DNA of 64,000 bases from Antedon mediterranea. Lineage: Eukaryota > Animalia > Echinodermata. Positions 2,856-39,152 of the stretch are shown here, piece by piece. Each line of letters opens with the position of its first letter. Within the stretch, counting starts at the first letter, position 1. Location of the stretch: assembly GCF_964355755.1 (NCBI RefSeq), contig NC_092679.1:2076201-2140200 (forward strand), given 5' to 3'. Made by a program: the position numbers and the translations under genes. The notes under the pieces were generated by a model. It was not told the origin of the DNA and made no database searches. It saw only the letters and a list, made by a program, of their open reading frames with translations.

Positions 2856-5800
2856 TCAAAACATGAATAACGTCACATCACGAATAATGTCAGTTGCAGA
2901 ATTAATGACGTGCGTAATGACAGACATGTGATGCTTAACGGTGCGCCACCTTGCTGGGATGTCTTCAGCGTCCTCAATGCCTGCCAGGGCGTCTTTCAAT
3001 CCAGGAAATCCACCGTTATTTGACGTCTTACCATCGTCAGGGTAACCCAAGATCAGGTGCCTGTAACAAAAATAAAACGATTCGAAAGAACTTAAGCTCA
3101 GTCTACACTATCAAACTTTATGTGACAAAAAAAATGTGCCCATATACGGACATAAGGATGTCATATAACTACCATATTTGGATAGAACTACCATATTTAG
3201 GTATATCACTACCATATATGGGCACATCAAACTAGTTAGTGTAGACAGTTATTGTAATCAGCATTTGGCCCGTCAAGTTCAGTTAATATACCCGCTTAAT
3301 TTGGCTTCGTGGACCATGCAATTATTGATAACTTTTGTTGGGTAAATTTGACCGTCAAAATTAAAATGATGAGTAGACCCGGATGAACACTTACGTAATC
3401 TGTTCTCTCCCTGGTAACCCACGTGGATATGTCATAGCTCGTTCAAGTCCGAGTAGCTGATCGTTTATGATTCGTAATGGAATATCACTAATGCTGTAGA
3501 AAGATAAAATAAATAAATTTATTATCAAAAGGCCAACAATTGGTGTAAATGATGACCATGAAAGTGGTGGTGGTCTGACGTACTTACTTAAATGGCAGTT
3601 CTGTGATTTGTTCTTGAAACTCCGATGCTGCCTTGCTGAAATTAGCGACACTTTCCTGAAGATATTCTGAAAAAACGCAAAAAGTTTGTTTGTGTTTTAA
3701 AGAAGTAACTATCAATTGTCTGTCGGTCGAGTGTCTGTCGGTCGAGTGTCTGTCGGGCAAAAGTCTGTCGGTCAATTGTCTGTCGGCCAATTTTCTGTCG
3801 GAAAAATGTTTTTCGACAAAATGTCCTGCCGGCGAAATCACCTCCTGTCGGCGAAACGTCCTGTCGGCCTAATGACCTGTCGGTAAAATGTCCTGTCGGC
3901 GAAGTGGCGGATGTGAATGCAGCAAGGATGTGAATGTTGTCACGTATATTATTGTCTGCAGCTATTTGAATGCAAAATATTGAAGCAAACGTGTGTCATT
4001 TTTTTTTAAAGACAAACAGTGCATGGTAATCTTCCAAATAAGTACTCACCGATCTTCACGCCTTGTGCATAGAATTCCTCTCCATACCTAGATCTAAGAA
4101 TTGCCAAATTTTCTTCAATCTGTCGTGCGTATGTTGTGACGTCAAACGGAATAAGGCTGGAGTCGGCAATAACGCGTACTAGTTCACATAACGTTTCCGA
4201 TAACGTTTTATGAAGCGAAAACGTCGGGTCAATAAACTTACTGACGTAACTAAACGTGTCGTGTAACGTTCGTGAAACGGGAACCTCTGAAAACTATAAC
4301 AGAAATGTAATAGGTTTGTAATGCTGTGTTGATAACGTAACGTCACTATTTTTACGGTATACCATACGTAAAACGAAACGTGGTTTGACGGAAAATGTTG
4401 ATAATATTAACTTACATCATCATTAGCGTAAGCTACGTCCATTGACGGAATACCGAGTCGGTTTACAAATGTGTTGACGTCATTATCAGCACGCAGCGTC
4501 TTCATTCTATAGTTTAAAAAGTGTACTTATTGTGCGTATTCTAAACTAAATACTATTTCTAGTATATTCTGGCAAAATCATTCATAGATTATTATCTGTT
4601 TTTAGTGCGATTAAAGCATTTTACGTGGTTAAGCCAAGAAGGAATAAAAATAATCGCTTAAATTGTTCAACTTTTAAGTTAAAAGTCTCTAAAACTACGT
4701 ACTTAGGAAGTCCAGTTGAAGAATCAGAAAATCTATCATGCCACAGCTCGAACATGTTGTCATACAGACCGTCCGGATCTTTTATCTAAAAAATAATAAA
4801 TGAGAAATGTATAACAAAGAAACAAAATTGTTTTGAAAATATAAACAAGAAGAAGTTTTTTCTATCACGTTTTTCTATTACGTTTTTCAATACGTTTATC
4901 CTTTACGGTACGTTTCTATATCTTCTCGACAAAAGTATGTTACCTTATTCAATATTTCGTTCGAAGTAAACGGAAAACAAATAGAAGAAGAAGAACAAAT
5001 ATTACCTTTTCTGTAGAGTTAAATATGACGTCACGTAGTAAAGGAGAGGCTCTGACATCTAACGTAAAATTTCCTTTCACAGAATTGATATTAATGTACG
5101 TTACAGCTCGGTCATTCAAAACAGTCCGAAATTGCTAGAAAATAGAACAATAAAAAATGTAAGTTTTAAGAGAGAAAAAAAGTTGTCAGTTAGGACATCG
5201 AAAAGACAAATGAAGTGGGTTCTAAACTTTAAGATAAAATGTTAATGTATTTCATCAACGATTCCAATGTCATATTATTCTTTGTGAATATAAAACGTTT
5301 TTGTAGTCTTATATTATAGTCGATCTCCTGTTCAGCGGTGGAATGAGTTAATTCAATATTATGTATAGGCCTATCATCTCGGTATCTTTATTTAAAAAAA
5401 CCAATGACATATAAAAATACAAAGGGAAATTATATATATTTAACTACATGAATATGTAATTATATATGGGTGATATATATTGTAGGTTATTATAAAGTTC
5501 AAGGCAGTTTTGTTTTGAAGAAATTGTAAAACCAAATTAATTTTTTAACACTTATGAATGAAAGCTAAGCCAAGCCAAACTTGCTAGCACGTTGTCGCCC
5601 AAGACAGCAACAGACGTACGTGACCAACGCTGCTACTTTTGAGATAAGATATCGCTTGGCCAGTAAATATCACTGAATTATTAAACATACTTCGGTGAAT
5701 TCTGTAGATCCAATCTGTCCGTATATTTCAGCATCCCAGCTACAAAACACGATTGTTCTCCTCGGTCTCCAACCTAATCAAAATAGAAGACCACGTGACA

Positions 5801-8800
5801 AAACATTACATTTTAAACGGTCTAAATCCCACGTGGTTCGTCACTGAACTGTAAGCGCGCAAATCGGTCAACTGTGACCATGTACTAAATAAAGTCAAGT
5901 CGTACAAGCACGTACTCTGTCACACACCACTACGTACGCACATTCAATCGATGTGCCCTAACCTAAATTTGTAAAATGTGTTACACTTGTTCAAACATAT
6001 TTATTGAGAAACCGAATTCTTACAAATGTCAAGGTATTTTTTTTATGAATGACTTTTAGAATAGCAGTTTATCATATTTTAGTTACGTACTCAACGCCTA
6101 ATGTTGGAAAACACATGTTCTTGGTAACAATCAAGGCAAAAAGTTATTTTATAATTTCATTCTATTTTTTGTAGGCTTGAGAAAAACATGACCAACATTC
6201 ATCAGTCTGGAATAGAGACAGGACACACAATTGATGACAAATACTTTGTCGTCTGTGATTTTGCGCCATTATTCAATGGCTAGGCTTTGGTTTTACCTGT
6301 TTTCACCAAGTCTGCGAATGCTTGTGAGACTGTTAGAAGAGTTGCTGTACGGCTTCCGCTAGTCGACGCATCATTTAACCATGCGTCCCTATTTGCTCCA
6401 ATCACAACAAACCGATCTGAAGAAATTAAATTATTTGGGATTGAACATAAAAGTGTATTCAGGAATTGGAAAGTGTATTCAGGAATTGGAAAGTGTATTC
6501 AGAAATTGGAAAGTGTATTCAGGAATTGGAAAGTGTATCCAGGAATTGGAAAGTGTATCCAGGAATTGGAAAGTTTGCTCAAAATATTGATATCTTACTG
6601 AAGAAATCAAATGCAACAATTATTATTTGGAATTGAACAGCAAAGTATTCATGAATTGGAAGTTTGCTCAACATATTGATATCTTGTCTAATGAATGAAG
6701 TAGCCTCGGACACACTGCATAAATAATTAATAAAATATGTTTTAGCAGGGAAGAAGAATGATTCACTCTTCCCTGGTTTTTGCTAGATTAATCGATTGCA
6801 ACATATATATTACTCTCACCTGGTTCGATACTTCCTTTTATGGTAGCAACCACGTTTTGTATTGTAGCCACTTCTAACCTATTTCTCACTTCAAGTTTGG
6901 CAAATCTATTAAAACATGTCAGTAACAAGAGAGTTGTCAAAACGTGTAAAGTATATTAAATCCAGGTTACATAAAACACTTCCAATAATTATTAAGTTAT
7001 GCAATATAAGGCGATGTGCCCAAATATGGTAGTGATATGACATCATGTCCATATAAGGGCACATCACATTTTAAATTAATACATAGGATGAAAGTAATGG
7101 AGTGTTCCATTGACTACATTTGTCATGTTTCTAGGAGCAATCATTTTTTAAATAACAAATCATTATTTTAATTAGATAAAAATTTGTTTGAAATTAAGAA
7201 TGTCAGTAACAATGTAAGAATACATTATTTCTAGAAAAAAAGGGATTTAGTGGAGATTTTAAAATAAGATAACAATTATAAAGCTCTGTCTAAACTACCA
7301 AACTAGACAAAAAAAGTGTGATGTGCCCAAATATGGTAGTGATATGACATCATCATGTTTATATATAGGCACCTAACATTTTTTGTCACATAAAGTTTAA
7401 TAGTGTAGACAGAGCTTAAGACCCTTTAATGTGTGTTATGAATAAATTATAAAATCGTAACGGAGACATTTTTTTTTGTTAAATTTATAAGTAAAAGCTG
7501 AAACTAAATAAATTATAAAGAAGATGGTGATAAAGACACTGAAAATGGTGATAAAGATACTGAAAATGATGATATAAGTTGCTAAAGATGATGATGAAGA
7601 AGTTGATAAAGATTCTGAAAATGATGATAAAGAAGTTGATAAAAAGAAGATGAAAAATCATGAACATTAGTTTGAAAATGATGATGATGACGACGATAAA
7701 CACGTGCTGTGACGTCATGCAATACTTACAAACTACTTTCGGTAAACCCCAGACCAATACGGTACTTAACGCTCATCTCTCCTTTAAAGAACTTGGGAAC
7801 TTTTGGTCCACTTACTTGGCTATAAAATTAATAAAACTAAAACTGTTATGATCATTTTTTAAACTTAATGTTTAGTTGTCACTTTGACGCAACACACTGA
7901 CCAAATCAAAAGCGACAGTTTGGATGGTCCGTCGCGTCGTGATTGATCAAATCAATTGGGATGTGGTTACGTCAAAGTCTGAATCAAGATTGAACAAAAT
8001 TAGAAAAGTACATAAGTATTATATGCGAAGATGAAATTAAAAATCTGCAGAAAAATTACCTTAAAATATACTTTGCATCTTGTGCACTTATTATTGTTGA
8101 AGGAATTCTGGGTAATTCAATGTCCGTATTATTAATACGATATGCTCCGGCTGGATATAATAAAAATAAGGTAACAATTTATTCTACGTTTTTTAAAATA
8201 ATTGCGATTATATAAACCAATTTCGTTTTTTAGGCCTATAGATACAAACGTGTTCACTTTACCTATGGAGGGTAGTCCCGGTGTGGAGGGGTCGCCAGCG
8301 TAGTCGGGGGACAGCAACGTTTCTCTTGAGATAATCGATGGGTTAGGCCAGTAAGCATCTGGTGTATATTCTGTGTGTTCGGCATAATCTTGATACATGA
8401 TTAGACCGATACCTCGGTTCATTTCACTATTCTTCACCTGTGTTTAAGAAAAATGCTATTACTAAAAGGGTTTCACATCCATCTCTGATGAAGGATTGTG
8501 TAAAAGGAGGAGTTGCACATAATAAGGCTAGATGATTAAGAAATCTGAAGTGATCACCATTCTGACCTCTGACCCCTAAAATTGTCAGGTCGTCATAAAT
8601 GTATCATCTTCACTGAAACCATTTACCGTTTAATATCTAACTCAACCATATAGGTATTATCATAGGCCAAGAGAATCAACATAAAATTGATCCACCATGG
8701 TTGCTCTATGGACTCAACATTACCAACCTTATATCTGATAGACATTTTTTCTTTTTACACATTCCAGCCTTTATCTAACTCAACCATATATGTATTATAC

Positions 8801-11800
8801 AAACAAGAGAATCAACTCTATACAACTCAAACGTGATCCAATTTGGTTGCTCTATGGATTCAACATTACCAACCTTATCTCTGATAGATAATTTTTCTTT
8901 TCACACATTCTAGTCTTTATCTAACTCAACCATATATGTATTATACAAACAACAGAATCAACTCAAACGTGGTCCAATTTGGTTGCTCTATGGATTCAAC
9001 ATTACCAACCTTATCTCTGATAGATAATTTTTCTTTTTACACATTCTAGTCTTTATCTAACTCAACCATATATGTATTATACAAACAAGAGAATCAACTC
9101 AAAGTGATCCAATTTGGTTGCTCTATGTACTCAACACTACCAACCTTATCTCTGATAGATATTTTGCCTAATCTTGCTATAAACATCGTGTTCTCCTTTA
9201 TTCGATTTCCATATTTTCTCTGGATGTAATTAAAATCTTCCTCTCGTGCATAATTCACGTACATAATATTTCCCTGTTAATAAAGTATGTAAAACGAAAC
9301 CTGTAATTGTTGGAAATTAAACGTTCAGTTCAAATCAGTGAAGTGAATAATAGGTAGGCCTATCCGGTAATGTATTCTATCAATGTTTACTGTTTTCGAT
9401 TTAAATTTACAAAATTCCAATAATAATTGCATTAATTAATTTATTATCCAGATGTCTGTTGCAATAATTATTTAAAAAAACTAAATACATGAACAAAAGT
9501 GAAATATAAAATCTTAACCAAATCTTACGTTACGTACGGTTTACGTTACGTGTGATATTTTACAGTACTTTAGTTTTTATATCATTATAAATTACATTGG
9601 TTTTTCTATGTATCAATCAAAATAATGGACTATACATATCGGAATAGTTGATAAGACAATCTATAAAACCTATGTTCATCCTGGTAAAAACACTGTAAAA
9701 TCAGGTAACAATTTCGTGGATTATGTACAGAGTAGTAAAAGCTAAGCAAATAAAAATTATGTCCTTATATGGCATAAATGTGATTACACTTTAATAAAAT
9801 GGCGGATATTCATGGTTGGATGACATTTCAAACGGAAAAGTTGTATAATTTTAAACACATTATATAAATTGTATGAAAATTATAAATACATTACTAGGAA
9901 ACTCGTGTTTGAAAACCCATTTGATTTTATTAAAGGCAGAGGTTGAATACGATCATCATAAATTATGGCGTAGGATATTAATGTATGTGAGTGATAATGG
10001 ACTGATTTTATTTTATGGATTGTTCTTTCTGCCTCAATCTGAAAGAGATTACCACCAGGAGAAAGTTAATTATTGTTGGTGGATTAATGTTTTCGATTTG
10101 TCTTCATTTATGATGAGAATGGAAAACTAAATACCAAAACTCCAATTATACATTTTGAAGTGAATCCAGATTTGGATAATAAAGTTCGTTGAATCGATTT
10201 GAATTTTGAATTTCGAGATATTATAAATGCAAACAATTTACGACAAAATTAAATATATTTTTAAATTTAACAAATCAAAATTGTCCACAAACTAAAAACA
10301 TTTTCTCAAAACGTATTCATACCGTATTCTTAAGCTCTGTCTACACTATCAAACCTTATGTGATGTTCCCATATATGGACACGATAACATCATCACTACC
10401 ATTATTATTTGAGAAAATCCTTCATATTTTGTCAAACTAGTTTGATAGTGTAGACAGTGCTTTAGATTTTACAATGGTAATATTTCGTTCCCAGAATGCG
10501 ATCGCATCGAAAGCTCTGTCCACACTATACTGTATCAAACTAGTGATGTGCCCAAATAATATAATTCATTTATTTTGACTATTAGACTTATAGTAATCCT
10601 GTATTATTATAATTATTATTGGTATTTTCTTCTGTATTCTTACTTGTTGTGTATTTCATTGGAATTAAATAGGGCCTCTGAATATAAACTAAAGCTAGTT
10701 TGTCAAAAAAAGTGTGATGTAATCAAATATGGTAGCGATATCCTTAAATATGGTAGTGATATGACATCATCATGTCCATATATGGGCATATCACATTTTT
10801 GTCACATAAAGTTTGATAGTGTAGACAGAGGTTAAACCAGAGTAAACCAGATCTAACCTGTTTGACACCAGATACTGAGTATGCGTTAAAAGGAGGTGTA
10901 CCGCTGTTAATTGCAAGACCTGTTAAGCCGGACGGCATTGATTCTCCGCTCGACTTCCATACTTCATCATTCCCATACCAAAGGGATACCTATAATTTAT
11001 ACAAATATATATATATTAATAATTATGAAAACGGCAAACATAAGTATACATAGTAAATTGTCCCGATTCCGGTTCCCCTGTTGTCTATTTTTCTTTTTCA
11101 GTTTATGGGCTGCCTCTCAAAAGCTTTCATTTGTTGGATCTTGACTCTCTTGGTTAATCAAATTATCGTTTGTACTCTATTGTTATGAGAAATACATGTT
11201 ACTTTTGATTGATAAATTAGTGACGACGACATATTTAAACAAAATCATGACATAGCTTAACATAACCAATTTGCTCTTTGGGTAAACTATAATGCGGAAA
11301 GAACACGTGACATTCTTGACTGACCCAATCTCATTAAATTTCGGAAGAAAGCAAGAAAATAAAAGAGAAAATGAAAGCAGATTAGAAGGATTAGGAGAGG
11401 ATGTTTGGTGACTTTGTAATATTGAGAATATACTTATAGTATAAACTGATCGCGACCCCTGGGGATATTCAGATAAGGGTATAGTTTGTATATTCCTGTA
11501 TGGTACACTACACTTCAACCTGAACTCCATTTGATTATTATCATGTACAAATTTAGAAATCCTCTGCTTTTCTGAATTATACCTTTTAATTTAAAACATA
11601 TTTTTCGCTTTTATAAACACCTGATTTTTGTTTGTTTTTTTTTTCTCTCGAAGATTTTTTTTTATTTCTTTTTTAAACTCGTTCAATACTTTAAGGAATC
11701 CTAATTTCTGGAAAAATATCAGAAGCCTGGGTGCTTAGACTTGGTTCCCAATAGGATGCAACGCAAGAATCTAAGTGCGTGCAACGCAAGCGAGTTGAAT

Positions 11801-14523
11801 AATGACATGCGACGGTTCGGATAATCCATCGATTGTGATTGGTCAAATCACTTACGTTGCGCTTACGTCTTTGCGTTGCGCTCTATTGAGAACCAAGTTC
11901 TGTCTCTGTATCTGTGACGTACTACGGTACAACCATGTTGCCTATGTATGAATCTATTTAAACTTTCTTCTTCTTAATATCCTTTTTTTTGGTGATCTAT
12001 GTCATTGGTCAGATGTTTGCCCTACTCTGACGTAATTTGTACTACTTTACATACTAAGTACAATTGAGAATACACGATCTTGTGTCTTGTTATTAATTTC
12101 CAGTACAGTTGAAATAAACTTCGAAGCAGTATGTACGAACATATTTCAGTATGTATCATTGGGCGGTTTGGAATCTATCCTGTCGAATTTACAGATAATA
12201 CATATATATTTCCCCTGTCGGTAAGCTTAATTCTCTCAATATATAATAAATATTAATTACATAGTGTTACATTCCTTATCCGTATAAGCACTTGGACAAC
12301 TATTTACAGCCAAATTACATGTTTAATTAATTTTAATTAAAGACGAAATTGACTCATTTTCTTTAATTCTCTGTACTCGCGAAAAGGAGAAAACTCAATT
12401 TCAAAAATTCTCAAGAGAAATGCATTTCATAAAACAATCAAGTTTACAAAGAAATAATAAAGCTGAGTTTACTGAAGAGAAAATATTGTGCACACATTCA
12501 GTAGGCCTAACTAAAATGAATCATGTCCTGCGAGGCCCACGGGACAGCCGGTGGCGAGGTAAATACTAGGTACTTGATAAACAGTTCATGATGACAAGGC
12601 CTAGAAATTTGTGTTGCTTGGTCGTCAGGTCTGTGACGTAAAACGCCGCGCCATTATTAATCCGTGTCACCAAAATAATCAGTATTGTTGTATGCAAGGA
12701 TCAACCCAATTAGTTTAGACAGAACTAGGTTGTTCTCTTGTAACCAAACGAACTTAAAGTACATTCATTATTTCAAATTCAATAATCATAATTCGGGTGA
12801 TTGGTATGCTGTATATATAGCACGGTAAATTAAAACGTTTATTCACAATTATGCAGCAAAAAAAAAAAAATTAAATAATGTAAAACGGAAAAGAAGCAAA
12901 ATTAAGTTCGAAAGGAAAGTTTTGAGAAACAAAGCAATGAAATGCAAATAAAAAATAGTATAAATTATATAATTAGGCCCATATAATAAATCATACTAAA
13001 ATTATACATTACACGACTAGAAGGTTTATCGCCGACGTCGACCTTTGGCTTTGATATTGTGACGTCATAGGAATGAACTTTTGACGAATCAAAACCTTGG
13101 TTTTCCCAGTTATTGCGAATCCACTCGGCAATTTCTTTTCCTGTGTAAGTACCTGGATTTCTCGTTCCACTGGTTATTCGTCTAAATTAAGAAAAGATGT
13201 ACTTTTACAGATATAAAGAAAATGTACTGTTGAAAACAATGGCTACTGTGTATGTGTAAACCGAGTTAGTGACTGTAGGCCTACATAGCTAGCAATAATA
13301 TAATATCGACAAGGGTTCGAGGCTCACTCGCTTCATGGTTCTGGTGGCGGCAGAACAATTCTTCTCGGTCCGGGACTATTATAAGACTGTAGGTCTAGCG
13401 TACAAATAATTGTACACTTTAAGAAATATAGTACATTTTTTTTAACGAGTATGGTTCACACACAGCCATGTCTTCCAGTTCCATTATAACCAACATGATC
13501 ATTGTGGGAACTGTTGATGTCTAAATGGCTAAAGCTCTGTCTACACTAACAAACTTTATGTTGCAAAAAATGTGATGTGCCCATATATGGACATGATGTC
13601 ATATCACTACCGTATTTAAGAACATCCGTATTATATTTGGGTAGGCCTACATCGATTCGTAAAGTTTGATAGTGTAGACAGAGCTTTAAGTATACAATCT
13701 CATTACAGATACGCTCATAATGCAAAATGCATGTGGACAAATACTATTACGTAATCTGTCCAACTAGGTGGAACGGGGCAAAACAAGTGGATGTATAAAG
13801 TAAAAGAATGAATATATAATACATTAAGTTATTTTAAAATATTTTTTGGTTTAAAATGTTAATATTATACGCGAGCGATCTACGATAAATTCCGTCATTC
13901 GTGACAGGTATTTGATAACATTTGTTATTTTACTACGGGTATTACACATTAATTGAAAAATTGTAATTTTAAACTAAATGTGATTAACTGACCAGCGGAC
14001 TGTCTACGACTTATAGAGACTGTTGATATATCTATTGATATCATTAATGTACTTACTGAAATATATCCTTGATATTGTCTGCTTTTATTAAATCGATCAA
14101 TTCACCAGTTATATCCCTAGGCTCTTCTGTGGTTACCGGTGGTGGTGTGGTTGTCGGCGGCGGAGTCGGGGTAGTAGTAGGCGTATTTGTAGGAGTCGCC
14201 GTCTCCGCTAGTTTTGGTATCGGTGTAGGCATCATTTCTAACGTGGGACAAGGGACATTTAGATACAATGGGGGTAGCGGCTTGGGTGCAGTCACGTAGC
14301 CTAAACCAAACCCAATAACAATGCAAGTGACTCCAACGATGAACAAACCCAACAAAAAGTTAGTTGGCCGTAATCGGCAGACATTATTCGACCCATTTAG
14401 TAACTTATTTTGCTGAGTTTTCTTGTTTTTCTTGTTCTCCTTTGTAGGTAGATGCTTCACTTTCACAGTTTTCTCCGGTTTGTCCATTTTATCGTTCGCT
14501 ACGGGCACATTTTCCTTCGTCAT
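2856..14523 (-). CDS. M28B/GCPII-family type II membrane protein, predicted catalytically dead (transferrin-receptor-like pseudopeptidase), 17 exons, ~823 aa
   Basis: Exons 14057-14523, 13013-13181, 10858-10989, 9145-9273, 8263-8437, 8060-8150, 7730-7819, 6820-6905, 6297-6416, 5691-5773, 5006-5134, 4703-4785, 4416-4506, 4050-4293, 3588-3666, 3395-3493 and 2856-3060 join into an uninterrupted 2472-nt frame. It encodes a TM helix, PA domain ([26 protein letters not shown]), M28 domain ([16 protein letters not shown]) and TfR-dimer domain ([16 protein letters not shown]). Confidence 0.9.
3095..3248. mobile_element. MITE family A copy
   Basis: AGCTCAGTCTACACTATCAAAC ... AGTGTAGACAG, same core. 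Confidence 0.8.
3715..3905. repeat. Imperfect ~15-bp tandem repeat (CTGTCGG core)
   Basis: About 10 CTGTCGG units. A similar GTCGGTCGACGG array lies at ~29215-29295. Confidence 0.7.
6450..6575. repeat. 20-bp minisatellite AAAGTGTATTCAGGAATTGG x ~6
   Basis: Direct inspection. Confidence 0.9.
6746..6775. mobile_element. 30-bp CAGGG...CCCTG hairpin insertion, 7-bp target duplication (6/7)
   Basis: GTTTTAG|CAGGGAAGA...TCTTCCCTG|GTTTTTG. Confidence 0.65.
7282..7416. mobile_element. MITE family A (Tourist/PIF-Harbinger-like), TAA target duplication
   Basis: TIR AGCTCTGTCTA...TAGACAGAGCT, with TAA on both flanks. Confidence 0.85.
7520..7700. repeat. Degenerate (GAT)n / 21-bp low-complexity repeat
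   Basis: GAAAATGATGATAAAGA units. Confidence 0.7.
8625..9165. repeat. ~135-bp tandem repeat x4 that includes an exon end and splice donor
   Basis: TTATCTAACTCAACCATA...GGTTGCTCTATG...ACCAACCTTATCTCTGATAGA recurs four times. Confidence 0.9.
10333..10831. mobile_element. Two adjacent MITE family A copies (10333-10461; 10512-10831, interrupted by ~135 bp of AT-rich insert)
   Basis: Family A TIRs and core. The first copy is flanked by TTA/TTA. Confidence 0.8.
13259..13470 (+). mobile_element. Degenerate copy of the same SINE
   Basis: CAAGGGTTCGAGGCTCACTC...CATGGTTCTGGTGG...TCTTCTCGG is shared with 16353-16410. Confidence 0.7.
13533..13685. mobile_element. MITE family A copy containing a TAGGCCTA insertion
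   Basis: Full TIRs. GGGTAGGCCTACATC occurs where other copies read GGGCACATC or GGGTACATC. Confidence 0.85.
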
Positions 14524-16025: not shown

Positions 16026-16131
16026 GTGAGTGAGTGAGTGAGTGAGTGAGTGAGTGAGTGAGTGAGTGAGTGAGTGAGTGAGTGAGTGAGTGAGTGAGTG
16101 AGTGAGTGAGTGAGTGAGTGAGTGAGTGAGT
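16026..16131. repeat. (GAGT)n microsatellite, ~26 units
   Basis: Perfect array abutting the SINE 5' end. Confidence 0.95.
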
Positions 16132-16623
16132 GGCCGAGCGGTTAAAGCGTGGTTCCCAACTAGCGACGCAACACAAGGACGTAACGAAACGCAAGTGAAT
16201 TGACCAATCACAAACGATGGCTTATTCGCTTGTGATTGCTAACTGTCTATAACTTCGCTTGTCATTGGTTAAAACGCTTGCGTTGCGTTTACGTCCTTGC
16301 GTTACGTTCTAGTGGGAACCAAGCTTTAGACAGTGGAACCGTAATTACATCGGCAAGGGTTCGAGGCTCACTCACTCCATGGTTCTGGTGGTAGAACGAG
16401 TCTTCTCGGATAAGGACTATAAACCGTAGGTCCAGTGTACACAACTAGCTCGTGTGCACTTTAAAGAACCTAGTACATCTTTCGAGACGAGTAGGGGGTA
16501 CCCCGGTGTATTGGTACATCACAGCCACTGATCCCCAACTGGGCCCTCTGGGAGACCAGTCTTTGACTGAAGAGGTTACCCAGTATAAATATATATTTCA
16601 ATCAATATTTCAATCAATCAATG
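16124..16623 (+). mobile_element. tRNA-derived SINE with a Deu/Nin-like central domain
   Basis: A-box TGGCCGAGCGG and B-box-like GGTTCGAGGC. The central GGATAAGGACTATAAACCGTAGGTCC...TAAAGAACC...CCCCGGTGT resembles the Deu/Nin domain. It ends in a (TCAA)n tail. Confidence 0.75.
16146..16325. mobile_element. MITE family B (~179 bp fold-back, TWA target), inserted in a SINE A-box
   Basis: AGCGTGGTTCCCA...TGGGAACCAAGCT, near-identical to copies at 26718, 51951, 63518 and 63829. Confidence 0.9.
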
Positions 16624-16947: not shown

Positions 16948-19900
16948 ATGTCTGAAGCTTTTGCTTCAGATTCTAACAACTCTACGGGAAAATCTCGTTA
17001 TGGCAGGCGAAATCTTTATCTTATGTTTGCATGTGTAGGACTTCTAGGCCTAGGAATTGGTTTGCTCTTTGCATTCTTAACTTTTCCTGAAACTTTACGT
17101 AGCCCAGAGTGTATCGAGTATGGCGATGGCAGTAATGGCGCTGACTGGGTCTCAGACAAGTTGATGAATTCGATAGTTGCTGAAAATATCGAAGAATATC
17201 TAAAGTAGGTTGCTTTTTTCTTTTATCGCCACTAATCGGAAGTATATTGTAATTGCAGGGAGATGTAAAACAAATATTTCATATCTCCCTGGTAATTGTA
17301 CCCCGATTCCGCAGCTTTCACTAGGTATATATTAACTGATCATTGACAGTCATCTAGATAGGAGCAGCAAAATAAAACACTGATGGATTCTTTTCCTATC
17401 GATTTTATAGATATTTTTCTTCCCGACCTCATCTTGCTGGGACACCAGCAGAGAAAGAAAATGCGCAATATGTTCGGGATAAATGGATTGAACAAGGAAT
17501 GGACAACGCCAAGCTAGTTCCTTACAATGTCTACTTGTCATACCCCGATACAGACAATCCAAATATGGTAGGTTCAAATTTGAATATTTTAATCTATTTA
17601 GTCATCGATTAATTAGATCCCTCCCTGGTTGAAGTAATACATTATTTGTGAATTTGTTAAAATCTTAGGTGTCGATTCTGGAAAATGATGTTGAGATATT
17701 CCGTACGCGAGAGCACGAGGATGTATTAAGACCTGAAGATGACAATCCTGACATAGTACCACCTTTCAACGCCTATTCTGCCCAGGGTACAGTCGAGGTT
17801 AGTATCAACCGGTTATACTTCTTTCTCGTATTACCAACAACATCATACCATTAAATCAAATCAAATCTTTATTTGTTCCATATATAGAAAATGTACATGG
17901 AAAAATTGTTTTCCTCGACAGAAAAATATGGTAAAACATTCACAATTACATCATAATAGAACAAATTTACAATTTAAAAACATTAATTAAAACATCCATC
18001 AACTGTAAAACTTAAAAATATATATTGCATGTGCGCTATTATGATCTAACAATTTTTGAGTTAAAAATATGAGTTGAATTTGGTACAAAAGACAGTCGGT
18101 TTCTTGACGTATCAGCTCTAGAAGCCCGTAACCGGCCTGACTTGTTCTTATAAAATCTCATATGTAATGGATGTTTCTTATCTTCTAAAATTTTACTTAA
18201 TTTACTTAGGCCTTGTTTTTCATAAAGATATTTTAAATCATTAACCGTACAACCAATTATATGTGATGCTATCTTAGTATTTCTAATGAGACCTTTCATA
18301 TAACACAACACATAATTTCCAATGTGAATGCACACTAGCAAACTTTCTGAGTTCGCTTGCACTGTTTCAACAAGTTTGTAGTGTCTGATCTAACACTATT
18401 TAAAATATACAGGCTTTGTTGGTGACACTGCCTACCTTTTGCAAACTAGTTTTCTGCAGTTTGAAGAAAATTGTCAACTGGTCTACACTAAACTTTTAAA
18501 AACCTTTACTGTCAAACTCAAGATTTGGTTCGTGTTTGTCATCGTAGACGTCTACAAACTAATTGTTTTATGTAGTTTTCAGATGGTTGTCAACTGCTTT
18601 ACACAAGCAAACTTTTGAAAATGTTTCTTCCTAAACTCCAAGTTTGCAAACTAAAGTTAATTTATCTAGTGTAGACATAAGAAAACACAGAATTAAACAC
18701 AAATGCATTTTCTACCTGCATATTGCAAACCTAAAGCAACGATTCTATTAAAATCTTCACAATTTATTTATGTCTTTAATGTATTATTCCATTTTTCACA
18801 GGGTGATCTCGTTTACGTAAACTACGCGAGAGCTGAAGATTTTGAATACTTGGAGAAGAATCATAGTAATATAGACCTCAAAGGCAAACTGGTAATTGCT
18901 AGATATGGAAAGATATTCAGAGGAAGCAAGGTAAACTTAATTTGTTACAAAATACACCTACTGCATATATTGTCACTAAGTCTGTTTTTGTACTTGCTAT
19001 ATAGAATAATATAATACGTTTCTTTGACCTCTGAAACGTAAACTGGTAATTTACCAAACCTAATCTATTCAACCAAAAGTCTTAAACAATTCTGAAGAAA
19101 TAATTTCTAATTGAGGTGATATATATCAACTATTTATATACATCTTCGACTCAGGTGCAGCTTGCCGAAGCGGCTGGAGCTAAAGGGGTAATTCTCTACT
19201 CTGACCCAGACGATTACGCATCAGAGGAAGCGAAGGATGTTTACCCCAACGATTGGTGGCTACCAGGATCAGGTGCACAACGTGGAAACGTGTTCGTTAG
19301 TGACGCAAAGGGTGACCCATTGACACCCGGGTTTCCAGCTAACGGTATGTTTACTAAACTACAATCAAATAACATACACATTTGTGTAATAATTATCATA
19401 TTCTGTCAGCTCTACCATAAAAAAAGAAATTTGTAATTTGTATTCTTAGATTACGCGTACCGATTATCGGACGAGAAGACCGCATTGACTAAAATACCAG
19501 TACACCCGATAGGATATGACGATGCTGAGAAACTTCTAAGGTACGTACACTTAATATTTTGTATTATGCAGTCGTACGGATTTACTGACAGCTCTGTTTA
19601 ATGTTGCAGTGTAGACTTCTGTAAACTATTGTTCTTCAGTTTGTCAAAGTTTACTCAACTCAAAATTTACTCGAGTTTACGAACAAATGTTTGCCAGTTT
19701 CGAATTCTGCAAACTTGTTTTCTTTAGTTTGCTAAAGTTTGTCAACTCCACTCTTCTAAGATTTTCTTTTTTTTACAGGGAACTTGATGGGGAAGATGTT
19801 CCCGAAGAATGGAGAGGGAAATTAAATGTTACCTACAAGTTTGGGCAAACTTTCAAAAATCCAAATAGGTAAATTTCGAGTAGATTCATAAAGATACATT

Positions 19901-22900
19901 AAAAATTCAGTTTACCTTGTTTGCATGCTAAAGTAATATTTTTTGTTTAAATTCTATGACAGAAAAATTAAATTGAAAGTGTTATCAAAGAAGGAAGTTC
20001 GAACGGTGTACAATGTTGTCGGCATGATCAAAGGAAGCGTTGAACCAGGTAAACGTTAGGGGAATTAAGATTAACACTATTATACAAATTAGATTATGCT
20101 AACATTTACATGTCACTGATCTATGAAACATATTATGAATAAATAAGATGAAACGATTCTACTAATGCTTCTCAAACACATCCATCTATCTATTAAAATT
20201 AAATAAGTAAATATGTTGTAAAGCTCTGTCTACACTATCAAACTTTGTGTGACAACAAAATGTGATGTGCCCATATATAGAAATAATGATGTCATATCAC
20301 TTCCATATTTGGGCATATCACTACCATATTTGGACACATCACACTTTCTTTGTTAAACTAGTTTGATAGTGTAGACAGAGCCTAAGCATGTTGTTGTTTC
20401 TTGTTTTAAGATCGTTACGTCATCCTCGGAAACCATCGGGACGCATGGGTTTATGGAGCGATCGATCCATCGAGTGGCAGCGCAGCTATGATGGAGGTCA
20501 CCAGTGCTTTTGGGAACCTTCTTAAAACTGGTGGTTAGTATAATATTATAGTTTATTGATTCATAGCACACGTCGGCCAGTGGTTATGGTGCTCTAGATG
20601 TGGATTGGCAGGATAATAGACGACCACAAAGACATCTCAATTCATGACAAAGTCACCAAAACTGTGGAAAAGTCCAAAGATACGACATTGTTCTCTCCCG
20701 CTGTGCTAGTTATGTATTATCTTATTTACACCTGAAGTGATTTAATAGGTTAATAAGAGGATCTCATTGTTGTTATGTTTCAGATTGGCGACCAAGACGC
20801 TCCATACTTTTCTGCAGTTGGGCCGCGGAAGAATACGGCCTACTTGGCTCAACTGAATATGTAGAGGTATATAATATTCGATCGATCATCATCATTCCAT
20901 AAACGATAGGCCTACAGTATCGCCAGTATTAAATACATCAACTCAACACTGTGGTCAATTGCCATTAGACAATAATTGTTGTTTTAAATTTCTTTTTTGT
21001 TTGTTTTTAGGACTTTCAGCGAGTGTTATCCGAAAGAGGTGTGGTCTACATCAACGTTGATTCAGCAGTAACTGGTAACTACACACTCCAAATGAAATCA
21101 AGCCCATCACTCAAGAAAGCACTGTTTAATGCTGCAAAGAAGGTACTACTACTTACTATCCGTTTATATTTGACAAAACGCGTTACTTCAAACGCAAAAG
21201 AAAGAAAGAACATAAATAACTATGTTGATGATGCGTTAAACAATTTATTTTTCCAAATCTACATAGGTACCATCGCCAGACGATGGTTTTTCGTCAACAT
21301 TTGATCTCTGGCTAAAACGCAATGCAGATTACGATGAACCAACGCTTCCATAGTAAGTAGGCCTACAGGGTATATAAGAGGACAACTTCGGGGGGCATAG
21401 CAGGGATTTCCATAGAAAGGTCTTTATTCTAGTGTTAAAACCATGTAGGGGCATTTTAAAGGAGAAGTTTCACAGTATGAAGTTAGTACATGTGGTTGGC
21501 ACATTAATCTACCAAATTACGTCATCTATTCATGTCATTTCTTGTTTTATTCTTGATCACAGTATAGGTTATTTGGGTTCTGGAAGCGATTTTGCTCCTT
21601 TTATGTACCGGATTGGAATTCCTGGAACCGATATTTTGTGGACATTTGATCCCGTATGTATATGTATCTGTTTTTTTTTCCTGATTTGTTTGTATTTAAG
21701 ACAGGACCACAATGCAAAACAGGTTTCTTTTACCTGATTGTGTAATCCTGTATAAATAAATAAAAAGTATCTATAAGCCTAATCATTGTTCAAGTATATA
21801 TTCAATTGTTTCCAGCTTTAATATCATATAATCTGTTGTTTTTATATTTAAAAGAGGCTGTCATTATCGTCGTATCCAGTGTATCATTCAGTCTACGAAA
21901 CGTTTTATCTCGTCAAATCGTTTCTCGACTGGGACTTCAAGCGTCACCAGGCAGTAGCCCGTGTGTGGACAGAAGTTGCGCGCGATTTCGCAGACACCAC
22001 TATCTTGCCAATTGACTGTGTGGATTATGTTAAAGAAATTCGTAGATCAATCAATTCTATTCAAAGTTTGTACGGAGATAACATTAATGAGCATGGAATT
22101 ACATTTGGTAAGAAAAAAAGAACATACGCTAGAATATTTTCATAAATTCAAGCTCGAATAAAATCTTAATTAAAAAATATGCTCTGCTATTCTTTTTTTT
22201 GTATAGATGCCATGTTTTCAGCAGTCGATAATCTGACAAATGTAGCCACAGATTTCCACGCAAACGTTAAGGACATGGACTTGTCTGAGTGAGTATTTAA
22301 GTACAACTCAAGTTTTTGTTGAATTATCGAGGAGACAAATATATATGATGAAACATTTTGTAATGCCATTTTTTAAAGAAAGAAAGGAGGTATTTCAGAT
22401 TGTCTGGCTATCAGTAAGTCCATTCAACCAACAAGGAACGCAAAGGTTATTATCAACGTTTGCAACTAGACTTAGATACAAGAAGAAGTACCGATCTAAT
22501 ATACCCTTTCTCAACTGACATTTCGAATATTTCACAACAGATTGAATTACATTTTGAGTGAACTTTCATCAATTTATACTTTCACAGTATTCTTGCAGTT
22601 CGAAAGGTGAATGATCAACTGATGTTATTCGAGAGGGCGTTCATAGACCCACTTGGTTTACCTGATCGAAAGTTTCTCAAGTAAGTTTTTCCAAACGTAA
22701 ACGACGTTTTACGCTGACAAATTACGGTACTAAACAATGTATAGTTTGATTATATTTCATTTTTTTCTAGGCACGTTGTCTTTGCTCCGAGTAGCAAGAA
22801 CTACTACGCAGGCGACGCGTTCCCGGGCCTCCTTGACGGTCTTTACCGCATCGACGAAGATCCAGATCAAGATGGCAGATGGGACGCAGTACGTGAACAT

Positions 22901-22966
22901 ATGGCAGTCGTAGCCTTTATGATCCAATCAGCTGCCAGTACTCTTAAAGACGTCACTGAATACTAG
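16948..22966 (+). CDS. Glutamate carboxypeptidase II / NAALADase-family peptidase (M28B), 17 exons, intact active site
   Basis: Exons approx. 16948-17204, 17411-17567, 17669-17797, 18802-18930, 19155-19344, 19450-19540, 19779-19868, 19963-20048, 20411-20533, 20784-20866, 21011-21142, 21267-21352, 21563-21653, 21855-22107, 22208-22287, 22588-22680, 22771-22966. Motifs: [70 protein letters not shown]. Confidence 0.93.
17256..17291. mobile_element. 36-bp CAGGG...CCCTG hairpin insertion, perfect 7-bp target duplication
   Basis: GTAATTG|CAGGGAGAT...ATCTCCCTG|GTAATTG. Confidence 0.8.
17853..18310 (-). mobile_element. 5'-truncated non-LTR retrotransposon (Rex1/Babar-like ORF2 C-terminus)
   Basis: [11 protein letters not shown]...SGRLR...[10 protein letters not shown]...FN* followed by AATAAA and a (GATTT)n tail. 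Confidence 0.7.
20222..20382. mobile_element. MITE family A copy
   Basis: Full TIRs and core. Confidence 0.85.
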
Positions 22967-23490: not shown

Positions 23491-26400
23491 ATGAAAGACG
23501 ACTTTGACGGCGTTGCCATTGTTGATGGCAACAACAAGAACACGAACTTTGTTACGCGGCATTTCGTTATTTTTACCGTCTGCCTGGGAGTGGTTTGTGT
23601 AGGTATCGGGCTTCTTATCGGGTACCTTACGTTTCCTGAAACACTACGAAGTGCATCAGACCCTCAGGTAGGCGACCAGACAGATCATGAATGGGTATCA
23701 AAAACGTTGATGGATAATATTGACGCTGCCAAAATCGAAGAAAATCTGAAGTAGGTTCTAAATTTAAGTTTGTATTTGAGGATATTGTAGGCCTATTGCT
23801 ACTAATACTAGAGTGAAACCCTTCTATTCAGGGGTAATTAAGGTTATAACTTGATAGTCACTCCTAGTATCATTATAAAGGGTACATTGTTTTGGGTCCT
23901 CCCAAAAGTGTTCTATTGTCCCTATTGCTCCTTCTAATAAAGGTTCTATTGAATTTTGCAATCGTAAAAAAGCTAAATTTGTTTTTAGATATTTTTCAAA
24001 ACGTCCACATGTTGGTGGCACATTAGCTGAAAAAGAAAACGCCGAATACATCAAGAGTGTATGGCTGCAGCAAGGCCTAGACGATGTTCAAATACATTCA
24101 TACACCCCGTATCTAGCCTATCCTGACATCAATAACCCCAACAAGGTAGTCAACCAATTATGTTATATCTCTTGTACAAACAGCATAAATAACAAACATA
24201 CTAAATAGTCGTGGAAAATACGAAATATAAAACGTATAACCATCTAGAAGTACAGTAGTACTGGAAGAGTTTCTAGAATCTTGAAGTTGTTCAAGAATTA
24301 ATCTATAATTTAGAAAGTAAAAATAGTGGGACTATCTCTCTTTAACTTTTAGTAAATTTACATTTCTGATTTCATCTATATGGGCTTGTAGGCTAAGTAT
24401 GATTAGGCTACCTATGAACTCTGGTTTCGATTATGTAGGTAACAATACAATACGTACGGTATTTACTCTTCATGTTATCGATGGTTGTATAAATACACTG
24501 AATGTCAACCAAGGGATTAGCTATATTGTAAAATGTCCTCCGAAAAATTTAAAATAGGTCCTTGAGCGTAAATAAGCACAGAGAGAGGTAGGCATAACAC
24601 TATTTCCTCAACGCACAAAAACGAGTGTAAAGCTTACTTTCACTATAGGACGTAACGCAAGCGATTTGAATCACAAATAATGGATTATTCGTCGCTTGTC
24701 ATTGGTCAATTCGCTTGCGTTGCGTCTGTGTGATTGTGCCAAGCTTTAGTTGTGCGAGTGCGGACTGCATCGGTGCGCATTCGGGGTTGCGATGCGTGCA
24801 GTCTACATTTTAACGTAGGTTACATTTGATGAGACTACGTTTACATGGAACGCATGCGGAGTTGTGATGCATGCGTATGTGTCAACGTCTGTGGCTTTTT
24901 CTATACACTACATGCATGACACATAGGCGTTTAGCTAACGATGACAAACATATAGCGTAATCATTACCGCAGAAAAGGCATGTTGTGTCTCAACATTGTA
25001 GTAATTTTGAAATAAGAATGTGTTCTTTTGAAGGTACACATCTTAGAAGACAACACGGTGATCTTCAGTACACGAGATCATGAAGATGTTTTAAGGCCAG
25101 AAGATGAAAACTCCGAAGTGCTCCCACCCTTTAATGCGTATTGTGCAAGTGGAAATGTTGAGGTACAGTATGACGTCATTGACGAGAAATGAAACAATAT
25201 AACTCGCTCAAATTAAAAAATGCTTTCCGAAAACGTCGCAAAAATAATACAATTTGTCGACTGATTATGATTATTTAAGACATTGTTTTCTTGTTAAATT
25301 AACAGGGCGAATTAGTGTACGTGAATTTTGGCCGTGAGGAGGACTTCATTTATCTGGCGGATAATAAGCCAGAAATCAATATCACAGGAAAAATTGTCAT
25401 CGCTAAATTCGCAAAAGGTTTTCGAGGAACAAAGGTAATGTACACTGCGTAGAGAGGAATTTGGAAGATGGAAACATGAATGAATGAATACGCGTAGGCC
25501 TATAAGCTGACGCTTTCGATTCGCGCGAACAAATTCGCCTAGTTATTAGTAGAAAACCGGCTTTATGAAGTGGAAGCGGTGAGGGCAAATCGTCAAATTG
25601 TACTTTTTATTTATATAAGTACGGTACACATTATTCGGGTATTTACTAATGTTTCTTCTTAATAACAGGTGAAAAATGCCGAAAAGGCTGGTGCAATTGG
25701 GGTCATTCTCTTTTCTGATCCCGACAACTATTCACCAGGCGACACATTAGGGGGTTACCCTAATTCATGGTGGTTACCCCGGACGGGTGCTCAACGAGGC
25801 AACGTGTGGGTTAGCGATGCAAAGGGTGATCCGTTGACACCTGGATTTCCCGCCAACGGTAAGCTAATGTACACTATATAAATCACCAATAATTGTAGGC
25901 CTATACTATTATGTGTTTTCCAAATCTTTATAATGTTATATTACATATAGATTACGCTTATCGACAAACGGAAAAACACGCAGAATTACCCACAATCCCC
26001 GTCCATCCGATATGCGCAGACGACGCAGAAATGTTATTAAGGTAATTGCATAAACATAATAAAAACAAAATATAACATATAATAAATTCGGTAATTGTTG
26101 ATGAAGTAGTTTGGCGTAAAATAAACTTATAAAGACACAAGTATTAGTATGATGGTGATCCGTTCTCAGGTTGCCAAGTTAAATTTACATATGTAATTTA
26201 AATATGAATACATCCATGCATGTAATTTATTTATTTAAAATGACATTGACGGTTACAAAATGTCGTAATAGAGAAATGGACGGAGACGAAGTTCCTGACA
26301 GTTGGAAAGGAGCACTAAATGTTACGTACCGATTTGGTCCAACTCTTAAAAAAGTAAATAGGTAAGATTTTTTTTAATCCATTCTGAAAAGAAGTAATTT

Positions 26401-29400
26401 TATTACCGACTTCCAAAATAGTGACGTCAGCCTTAGAATAAAAAGGGTACATTAGAACATATATTAAGGGGGCACATTCGGGAAAAAAATGGTCGTCTCT
26501 GAATAGGGGGTTAACTGTAAAACATACTGCTCTTCGTTCACTTTACAGATAGGCCTAAGTGTCCTTTAGTAGGGATGTCCCCTTAGTAGGGGTTCCCTCT
26601 GAATAGACTGTGTAGACCGTAGTGTTAAACTTCTATTGCCTCTTGTTTGTCTCACAGAAAAATGTCCCTTTAATAGGGTTTCTATTGTATTCAGGCTGCT
26701 ATACATGTTGCGCTTTAAGCGTGGTTCCCACTAGCGACGCAACGCAAGGACGTAACGCAACGCAAGTGAATTGACAAATCACAAGCGATGGCTTATTCGC
26801 TTGTGATTGCTAACTGTCTATAAGTTCGCTTGTCATTGGTTAAAACGCTTGCGTTGCGTTTACGTCCTTGCGTTACGTTATAGTGGGAACCAAGCTTTAG
26901 TTTTGACAATGTTGTTCCTAAATAGTCCTATTTTATACGATTAAGTTTGAGCTTATAATCTTGCAGGAAAATTAAATTAGAGGTTATTGCAATTAAAGAG
27001 AATCGACCCGTGTACAATGTCATCGGCATGATCAAAGGAAATGTCGAACCAGGTGAGTATTACTGTGATCACATGATACTTAAAAATAAGCAACTAACAT
27101 GACACATGACAATGCATAAAATAATGTTAATATTTGCTAATTAGACAGGTATGTGCTTATGGGAAACCATCGTGATGCCTGGGTGTTTGGCGCCATTGAT
27201 CCATCCAGTGGAACGTCTGCTTTGCTAGAAATGACAAGATCTTTTGGAAACTTGCACAAGAAACATGGTATGGTTACGGTGACAATGCCTAAAGCTTGGT
27301 TCCCACTAGCGACGTAAGCAAATGCCCTTCTAACAATTGTGCTTGCCCCCGCCTGCGTGAAATCAAACCTGATGTGCTTGCAGCAGTATTGCGTCGTCGG
27401 TTCCCACTTTGTGTTGCGTTCTAGTGGGAACCACGTTTTAACTAGACCTAGTTACAGGCATAATGGTGGTTTAAGGGTGGTGGTGTAAGTGAAGAGATTA
27501 GATTTAAATGTACTAAACATCACGCTGACAAGACAGACATTTTAGAAATAAAATAGGCTGACGGACTTTTACAACAACATTCTTGAGACAGAGAAGCAAA
27601 CCAACAACACAAATGTATATTTGCTGTTACTTTTATTTAATTTCAGGCTGGATACCACGAAGAACAATCATCTTTTGCAGTTGGGCAGCAGAAGAACCTG
27701 GTCTACTTGGTTCCACCGAGTTTCTAGAGGTCAGTTTGGACTGTTATTCTTCCAAAGCCAGGCCAAATTTGACTAGACAATCCTCGCTTGTAGGACCCAT
27801 GCACGACACAGCAACCGAAAGTCATACATACATTATGTTTATTTTACAGGATTTCCAGAAAATCTTAGCCGACAGGACGGTGGTGTATTTCAATGTTGAT
27901 TCTGCTGTAACGGGAAACTACACGTTTCAAGGAAAAACAACTCCATCTCTAAAGAAAGCAATAATTGCTGCCACTAAGAAGGTAGGCCTACATTGTATCT
28001 ATTGATTTTTTTTAATAGTCATTGTAAGTAGTACGAGTATCCTTTAACAAGTAGATAGCGGTATTGTAGTGCAGAGTCGCGCTCATCCTAATAACGTGCA
28101 CCACATTTGCAACATATCGAGGGTATCCTGTTCTGTCGAATAGTAGATTTTTTTTACGACCTTATGTGGTTTAACGTCCCATTTAAAGACGAGGCAACGA
28201 GAGTAAAGAACATTGCTCCAGTACAATCACGACCGTAATAATCCTTGTTTACTTTTGTGATATTATTTCTCCTAAAAAGGTCCCATCCCCTGATCCAGAA
28301 TACGATACAACGTACGACCACTGGCTTGCAAAAGATGAAAGCTCCACATACGACAACGAACCATAGTAAGAAATATCCTAATTATGGTTTTAGCTTTTAT
28401 GTGTCAATATTGTTTGATTTGGTTACTTAATGTTTGTTTTCTTACGTTTTCCTTAGTGTACGAAACCTTGGTTCTGGCAGCGATTACAAACCGTATACAT
28501 ATCGTTTAGGAATACCTGCGGCAGACGTCCGTTGGCGATATCCTACTGTGAGTAACCATGTATTCGCACCTCATGTTCACACTAATGTTATACCTCTTGC
28601 ACATTTGAATCAGACTATCACTACAACATTAGTAGCAAACTTTAGTAGTGGTAGTGCTTTGAAATCTTTGGTGCTACCCAGATGTGCGATTGGCGATTGG
28701 AAACTTAATATTTTTGTGGCAAGCACACGTCCCGTAGCAGTGATCTCTTTATTGTTTTCGCAACCTTCTGTGCACACGATTTAACGTCCCGTTCGACGTA
28801 GTCACTCTTTGGCTTGTGTCAAACAATAGATAAGAAACTGTTGAATAACAGAACTTATTTTTGTCAAGATTACTTACTCTATACGATATTCTCTTTAGGA
28901 TCTTGGTCTTTCTTCACATCCCGTATATCACTCCGCCTACTCTACGTTTTATTACGTTAAAACGTTTCTCGACTGGGACTTTAAGCGTCACCAAGCCGTA
29001 GCGCGTGTATGGACGGAGCTGGGACGGGAGTTCGCAGACTCGGCAATAGTGCCATTCGATGGTGTGTACTACGCGGACAAAATACTGAGGGGCATGGAGG
29101 CAGTTAGGGAGCTCTATGAAACCGAGATGAACAAGAATGGAATTACATTTGGTAAATTACTGTATTACTGATTATCGTCCACCTACTACTACTAGAATTT
29201 AACTTACTGTAGGTCAGTCGCTGTCCGTCGACGGCTGTCGGTCGACGGCTATCGGTCGACGGTTATCGGTCGATGGAGGTCGACAGCTGTCGTGAATCGA
29301 AAGCTCCTGATATGACTTAGGCCCTATACGCACATTTTACAATATGAAATAAAAATCAATCAAAATAATTATGTAATTTTTAATTGTTTTATTTTTAATT

Positions 29401-38977: not shown

Positions 38978-39152
38978 CCTCAAAAAGCTGCCTGTGGATT
39001 CCTTTATAACACCAAGACCATTGGCTTATTTTGAAAAGAGAAGATAAAATATGGAAGACTAAAGTACTACAATAATACTCCCACTGCAGATCTGAAAGGC
39101 AGAAAAATGACCTGATTTGACCCTGGCAGCCTGATAATGACCCCTGAACTTA

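Follow-up and report, generated by a model that had tools for sequence, protein, structure and literature searches.

A feather star GCPII-family protein with none of its five zinc ligands left, likely lost independently of the transferrin receptors

NAALADL2, a vertebrate type II M28B protein with a long tail, is thought to be inactive, and to our knowledge yeast Tre1 and Tre2 are without peptidase activity as well. TfR1 and TfR2 are non-enzymatic according to excerpts of PMC10794815 and PMC9768917, the first of which also names the five zinc ligands and E424 as proton shuttle. Parts of PMC3338440 give YTRF as the AP-2 sorting signal of human TfR, and parts of PMC12045970 describe an RGD element, the YQRV motif of TfR2 and the fact that TfR2, too, is without an IRE. 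Tre1 and Tre2, non-vertebrate members of the same structural family, appear in an excerpt of PMC8050425 as adaptors rather than iron receptors, with PPxY motifs that involve Bsd2 and Rsp5. In invertebrates, a sponge and a clam paper take intact-type NAALAD2 as a stand-in for the transferrin receptor (excerpts of PMC7034838 and PMC12896564). Our literature search, whose scope took in few subscription papers, found no paper on the gene described here or on echinoderm M28B proteins with a YTRF tail; Lambert and Mitchell 2007, the principal phylogeny of this family, may cover such sequences.

In this study we analysed a window of 64,000 nucleotides from the feather star Antedon mediterranea (NC_092679.1, positions 2,076,201 to 2,140,200 of the forward strand) and characterized one of its genes, called T below. 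Residues are numbered as in human GCPII, by alignment to a 750-aa mammalian FOLH1 that follows this numbering. The features of the gene are the following (X1 is the run with expression evidence discussed below):

2856..14523, minus strand: T, whole gene; 17 coding exons; 823-aa type II membrane M28B pseudopeptidase, XP_071962159.1
14057..14523, minus strand: exon 1; cytoplasmic tail, membrane helix, stalk and ectodomain start; boundary 14057 matched by an X1 contig piece
14368..14523, minus strand: cytoplasmic tail, aa 1-52; 14 K/R, no tyrosine and no acidic dileucine motif
14290..14367, minus strand: predicted membrane helix, aa 53-78; aa 49-78 equal the Anneissia ortholog at 25 of 30 positions
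14119..14229, minus strand: Pro/Thr-rich mucin-like stalk, aa 99-135; 27 of 37 residues P/T/S; low pLDDT; present in the ortholog, absent from neighbours A and B
13013..13181, minus strand: exon 2; corresponding stretch mostly absent from the Anneissia protein model
10858..10989, minus strand: exon 3
9145..9273, minus strand: exon 4; R210I
8263..8437, minus strand: exon 5; N257T and the retained T269 of the presumed calcium site
8060..8150, minus strand: exon 6
7730..7819, minus strand: exon 7
6820..6905, minus strand: exon 8
6297..6416, minus strand: exon 9; H377N (codon 6391-6393) and D387T (codon 6361-6363), both ligands intact in Anneissia
5691..5773, minus strand: exon 10; E424 retained (5727-5729), E425I (5724-5726; L in Anneissia), E433/E436 retained
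5006..5134, minus strand: exon 11; D453N (5084-5086) and an adjacent one-residue deletion, both also in Anneissia
4703..4785, minus strand: exon 12
4416..4506, minus strand: exon 13; G516R and G518D, both also in Anneissia
4050..4293, minus strand: exon 14; Y552S and H553R (4270-4272; H in Anneissia); an X1 contig piece matches both ends
3588..3666, minus strand: exon 15
3395..3493, minus strand: exon 16; helical dimerisation domain
2856..3060, minus strand: exon 17, coding part with stop; an X1 contig continues into the 3' UTR beyond 2600

Splice sites were chosen from the letters of the window and the exons joined by script, giving 16 introns, all GT-AG, and 2472 nt that encode 823 aa and a single terminal stop. 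Every residue of the product matches XP_071962159.1 of Antedon mediterranea (P0004 in our set), which bears out the earlier note's reading of a frame intact over 17 exons. A search with exon 14 returned two hits among 52 candidates, this protein and XP_033104028.1 of Anneissia japonica, both annotated in the database as putative dipeptidases. Two X1 contigs have listed pieces that end at exon boundaries, with gaps of 179 and 432 nt, which the model gives exactly as the lengths of the exons passed over. The expression asked about in the earlier note was thus seen as spliced T contigs in one run, X1, which is RNA by guess and shows presence only. Assembly error is excluded at four of the five ligand sites by contig pieces: those of X2 and X3, a single sample and possibly the assembly's own, cover the codons of H377, D387, D453 and H553 with no difference there, and X1 covers H553. 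The E425 codon lies outside the listed contig pieces, and for it and for the junctions from exon 9 to exon 14 the basis is the assembly, the NCBI model and contig-length arithmetic. Seven coding differences were mapped in T from 40 listed rows (36 others lie outside the listing), and five of them are synonymous (binomial p 0.013 if a quarter is expected).

None of the five zinc ligands is left in T (H377N, D387T, E425I, D453N and H553R); this loss had been claimed from the sequence before, and the FOLH1 alignment and the codon positions confirm it. The catalytic E424 (E502 of T) and D379 are retained both in T and in its Anneissia ortholog. All five ligands are present in the two neighbouring genes:

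16948..22966, plus strand: neighbour A; intact M28B, 754 aa; 35% identical to T; same 16 intron phases
23491..30515, plus strand: neighbour B; intact zinc ligands, 753 aa; 60% identical to A and 32% to T; same 16 intron phases

A further claim, that the substrate-binding residues had gone too, stood in part. R210I and Y552S are specific, being states found in one of 216 and in none of 229 intact-ligand homologs, respectively; N257T occurs in 74 of 220 intact homologs and K699/Y700 vary freely among intact invertebrate homologs, so that these last changes carry no weight. Three features of T, namely G376A, G518D and the polar character of residue 428, recur in several other degenerate members, which may reflect convergence or old kinship. 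We also looked for a newly selected pocket by comparing the conservation of replaced residues with background, and found no sign of one, since the replaced pocket residues are conserved at 12 of 21 positions against 233 of 394 in the background. The Antedon protein very probably has no peptidase activity. The spliced model, the ligand states and the conserved ortholog thus support the view that T is an intact M28B protein without a di-zinc site and probably non-enzymatic.

Ligand loss of this sort is widespread. In the homolog alignment 30 of 259 scored proteins differ at one or more of the sites (7 of 266 rows were gapped at the sites and excluded), and in a 250-row tree they sit on many separate branches, including molluscs, ticks, horseshoe crab, a hemichordate and starfish. 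Since inactive M28B proteins are a known kind and the loss recurs across animals, T by itself is a modest find.

The Anneissia ortholog, XP_033104028.1, is 67% identical to T (175 of 231 positions in the main protease segment) and reads H, D, L, N, H at the ligand sites, so that H377, D387 and H553 are kept. Both proteins show the loss of E425, D453 and Y552, R210I, G518D and a one-residue deletion beside 453. It follows that the ligands were lost stepwise and that three of the five changes are recent; by this comparison of two sequences, the state with all five lost is recent and specific to Antedon. We infer that the common ancestor of Antedon and Anneissia had already lost E425, D453, R210 and Y552, which would have ended catalysis, and that H377, D387 and H553 later decayed in Antedon because they were no longer needed. 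T would then be a clean two-species case of stepwise active-site decay under continued selection, in a protein still annotated as a dipeptidase. The Anneissia protein is the one near relative of T detected among 1.84 billion representatives (1070 bits, the next match having 396), and among the best 150 matches no ortholog was found outside the two feather stars.

T is predicted to be anchored as a type II membrane protein by a single hydrophobic helix that follows a basic tail. Like GCPII and GCPIII (FOLH1, NAALAD2; MEROPS M28B) it combines this topology with protease-like, apical and helical domains, at 33-35% identity and 388-423 bits, and it retains E424 and T269, E433 and E436, which we take to be the calcium site. 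It differs from them in the replacement of the five ligands, R210 and Y552, in the extra Pro/Thr stalk and in giving no hit to the Pfam PA domain; PF04389 and PF04253 are both above cut-off, the TFR_dimer domain with 71.5 bits. An AlphaFold2 model (mean pLDDT 85, pTM 0.82) was built from a 78-sequence alignment rich in GCPII-like rows, which favours a GCPII-like outcome. It aligns to GCPII with a TM of 0.92-0.93 (Z about 47, rmsd 1.9, about 673 aligned residues) and to TfR1 with 0.84-0.85 (Z 43, rmsd 3.0, 620 aligned); for the GCPII-like fold family, Z is 47-54 and rmsd 1.6-2.0, with about 672 residues aligned. The predicted structure alone, one of the checks proposed in the earlier note, is nearer GCPII. 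The likeness to NAALADL2 lies in its being a long-tailed type II M28B protein taken to be inactive. T has one motif of the PPxY type seen in Tre1 and Tre2, PPLY; it was rejected as a ubiquitin-ligase signal, as it follows the membrane helix and is predicted to be extracellular. The tails of T and of its ortholog are both without an acidic dileucine sorting motif, and that of the ortholog has no Yxx-hydrophobic motif. The stalk cysteine C92 is conserved in the two.

With TfR1 and TfR2, T shares the fold, the lost zinc site and a stalk cysteine; the lost site does not mark out a receptor, as 30 of 259 scored homologs are without one or more ligands. The closeness to TfR1 claimed earlier for several segments does not extend to whole-protein scores, which against solved structures are 423 bits for GCPIII, 388 for GCPII, 322 for NAALADL1 and 160 for TfR1. 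The last value, at 23-25% identity, is below the 194 bits of an intact Antedon paralog (693 with GCPII), and the starfish protein Patiria P0194, which is as distant from GCPII as T is, reaches 198. The TfR1 alignment to T begins only at residue 219, and the T ectodomain is of GCPII length. At three diagnostic columns, T has a residue other than that of the GCPII group, and the Atlas returned only GCPII and TfR2 clusters, with equal scores. A motif of the YTRF or YQRV type (as in the excerpts of PMC3338440 and PMC12045970) is absent, as no tyrosine occurs in aa 1-52 of the tail. RGD is absent from T and from its ortholog, a weak test considering that at least three intact homologs carry it. For the IRE, Rfam gave no hit in window positions 1-33000 and no pattern match lay downstream of the T stop, where the end of the UTR is unmapped; pattern matches numbered 20 against 19.7 expected, none of them in the T 3' UTR. 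Very likely, T is not the TfR ortholog.

The placement of T was studied with quick trees and with regrafting on a fixed backbone, in which the subfamily with YTRF tails described below served as proxy for TfR, no TfR sequence being included. For the regrafting of the T pair (28 rows, 671 columns), AU tests covered 49 positions under LG and 19 under each of two PMSF fits. All three models rank a position sister to the GCPII-like group first. A place as sister to the crinoid YTRF pair is rejected in all three (p 0.002, 6e-5, 2e-4), and two of the models also reject T as sister of the echinoderm YTRF clade (0.079, 0.006, 0.005). The earlier note had asked whether T groups with its two neighbours, and this placement is rejected as well (AU p 0.038, 0.004, 0.008). 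T beside A, B and two hemichordate genes (0.19, 0.23, 0.53) and T as sister to the whole YTRF-side subfamily (0.28, 0.13, 0.11) are rejected in none. The stem branch of T is long (1.0-1.5), and its position shifts between trees, from a mollusc inactive clade (93, unstarred) to two long branches or the base of the GCPII-like group. T may have arisen by an older duplication without losing its linkage to A and B, or it may be a fast-evolving duplicate drawn toward the root. As the grouping with A and B is rejected, we argue for independent ligand loss from the Anneissia ortholog and from the other Antedon gene described below, and not from a recent tandem duplication; on that footing the loss is likely independent of the transferrin receptors.

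Two observations on the neighbours were not used as evidence of kinship. All 16 intron phases are equal between T and A/B, 14 introns lying in the same column and 2 shifted by 3, but as proof of a recent duplication of T this was set aside, since the argument depends on the ancestral layout. Neighbour A is also the best match in a search with T (441 vs 405 bits), which was dropped because A tops the searches of two unrelated long-branch proteins, too.

The 250-row tree places Patiria P0194 in a second bilaterian subfamily of 26 rows with support 86, and a search with it led to distinct genes in the two feather stars, Antedon P0358 and Anneissia P0385. P0358 lies outside the window, on a different contig from T. 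It has glycine at E424 and E425, D387S and H553N, and its tail, like that of P0385, carries YTRF; it groups with starfish and urchin genes with support 99. In this analysis we define a Y[TS]R[FW]-tailed invertebrate M28B subfamily whose members include, besides these two, Patiria XP_038077674.1 and proteins of urchins, Glandiceps, Branchiostoma and molluscs. YTRF or YSRF occurs in all ten echinoderm members compared. Zinc-site degeneration in many members is common ground with T, as is L428Q in both crinoid pairs; the tail motif and the glycine at E424 of the echinoderm members are differences, and T is just 25-26% identical to the crinoid pair.

On the profile of this subfamily human TfR1 reaches 441 bits, vs 316 on the GCPII-like invertebrate profile (+125), with the caution that the subfamily profile is more diverse and TfR1 more divergent than any control. 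The same difference is +25.5 for T and +7.2 for its Anneissia ortholog. Among 373 full-length proteins, all 35 motif carriers score at least 129, and of the 102 divergent proteins held out, the 20 with the motif likewise score at least 129 and the 82 without it -70 to +85. Full-length TfR1 aligns to the profile of the ten echinoderm members from residue 19, which we take to be the place of the tail motif. As a single sequence P0358 does not stand out, scoring 260/143 bits vs 294/148 for a tick control. Considering the diversity of the profile, the divergence of TfR1 and these unremarkable scores, the link between subfamily and TfR is a lead, not a result. It is a strong one, and by sequence P0358 would be a likelier relative of the human transferrin receptor than T, which makes this gene outside the window the stronger lead of the two. 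Echinoderms have a zinc-degenerate subfamily with YTRF or YSRF tails that human TfR1 resembles more than it does intact-type NAALAD2. Should an adequate phylogeny bear this out, sea urchin or starfish would offer a direct test of whether invertebrates have a transferrin receptor.

What could T do? On balance we favour the explanation that it is an intact, spliced GCPII-family protein whose ligands were likely lost independently of the transferrin receptors and which likely serves for binding without catalysis, as a predicted dimer borne on a mucin-like stalk. The ectodomain would be folded, probably dimeric and glycosylated, and raised on the stalk; the protein would remain at the cell surface, without the cycling of a receptor for nutrient uptake, and would be kept by selection for a binding or adhesion role. 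For the specific role of a surface-resident binder we see slightly better than even chances. A bolder version, which we regard as rather unlikely, is that feather stars made a GCPII-type enzyme into a receptor twice, the YTRF gene being the counterpart of TfR and T a second conversion, caught midway, that binds a protein ligand while on the surface of the cell. If true, the two genes would illustrate the way in which an enzyme becomes a receptor, the switch behind vertebrate iron uptake, and would date the TfR lineage to early bilaterians.

It is doubtful that T serves instead as a non-catalytic heterodimer partner of the active A or B, adjusting how they traffic or how active they are. T and A lie head to head with their start codons 2.4 kb apart, the dimerisation domain of T is retained, and family members act as dimers (an excerpt of PMC10794815), but T is just 35% and 32% identical to A and B, and a stalk about 35 residues longer would offset the ectodomains. 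We consider it improbable that hydrolase activity persists in the T lineage, at least in Anneissia, in an altered form with one metal or none. The retained E424 and D379 of both species and the H377, D387 and H553 of Anneissia would fit such an activity, but both species lack a carboxylate in each zinc site as well as R210 and Y552, and Antedon is left without any ligand.

One of the two origins proposed in the earlier note, that T is a pre-vertebrate transferrin-receptor relative, here with uptake of an iron carrier as its function, appears very improbable. In its favour, T has lost all five ligands, the AU tests leave standing a place as sister to the whole YTRF-side subfamily, with which T has a few degenerate-type residues in common, and the stalk cysteine is conserved in both T orthologs. 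However, the Anneissia ortholog still has three ligands, T is without a tyrosine motif, RGD or a detected IRE, its TfR1 score is below that of an intact paralog, and the YTRF tail in Antedon belongs to another gene, which clusters with those of starfish and urchins (support 99) in a subfamily whose profile TfR1 prefers and to which it aligns from residue 19. The preferred reading of T as a non-catalytic surface binder meets its last rival in the idea of a decaying duplicate with no selected role, which we hold to be the least probable: the long stem branch (1.0-1.5), the conserved residues still being lost in Antedon and the restriction of orthologs to two feather stars among the best 150 matches of 1.84 billion representatives are set against a frame open over 17 exons in a gene common to another feather-star genus, a spliced transcript, mostly synonymous variation and a slower change of T than of the YTRF gene between the same two species, the tree path of the T orthologs being 0.55 vs 0.83 for the YTRF pair.

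Outside the window we found a group of zinc-degenerate M28B proteins in echinoderms that carry a glycine at the position of the catalytic E424 (human GCPII numbering, as throughout) and a tail with YTRF, the sorting signal of TfR1, or YSRF. It comprises P0358 of Antedon (781 aa), P0385 of Anneissia, P0194 (XP_038077674.1) of Patiria and the further echinoderm proteins P0299-P0303, P0202 and P0227. Relatives in hemichordates and amphioxus have YSRW at this site, those in molluscs VSRW. When profiles were compared, human TfR1 favoured that of the YTRF-tailed group by a margin of 125 bits, with its alignment starting at residue 19. Judged from their sequences, these echinoderm genes are likely to represent the transferrin receptor's counterpart in invertebrates.

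Degeneration of the zinc site was also seen elsewhere in the family. A pan-mollusc M28B clade, with members in Solemya, Liolophura, Littorina, Dreissena and Magallana (P0064, P0175, P0183, P0199 and P0217), lacks E424 and the ligands E425 and H553. Its database label is NAALAD2-like, and the clade is relevant to the proposal that NAALAD2 takes the role of TfR in molluscs. Additional M28B proteins with one to five altered ligands (P0188, P0189, P0229 and P0239; P0246 and P0266 of ticks; and P0094 of a horseshoe crab cluster) are scattered over separate branches of the tree.

Within the window, which contains the pseudopeptidase gene T and its neighbours A and B, the following further features were noted:

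3100-3250, 7000-7400, 10330-10830, 13540-13690 and elsewhere: short interspersed element with inverted ends, very high copy
8634-9165: tandem repeat in intron 4 of T, 136-bp unit, 3.8 copies
16026-16132: (GTGA)27 microsatellite in the stretch separating the starts of the divergent genes T and A
about 31170-32500, minus strand: small spliced gene, presumably resembling a PPC/DUF296-domain protein
about 33460-37000, plus strand, and about 39300-43300, minus strand: two convergent genes with open frames, which we take to resemble purple acid phosphatases of the ACP7 type
38230-39006: long tandem array of the 30-bp type, containing open frames
49260-50510, minus strand: long open frame, acidic and repeat-rich

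The 136-bp repeat carries copies of the 3' end of exon 4, together with its donor site, into the intron, and these might serve as alternative donors. In P0005, the Anneissia ortholog of T, most of the stretch equivalent to exon 2 is missing, which is probably a gap in the gene model or a splice variant. Gene B (23491-30515) has kept its zinc ligands, yet its K699/Y700 loop is shorter and altered compared with A, which suggests, from sequence comparison, that its substrate preference may differ. Copies of the interspersed element lie in several introns, and its contig depth exceeds background thousands of times over. In Rfam the element produces weak miRNA-like matches that fall far short of the cut-off.
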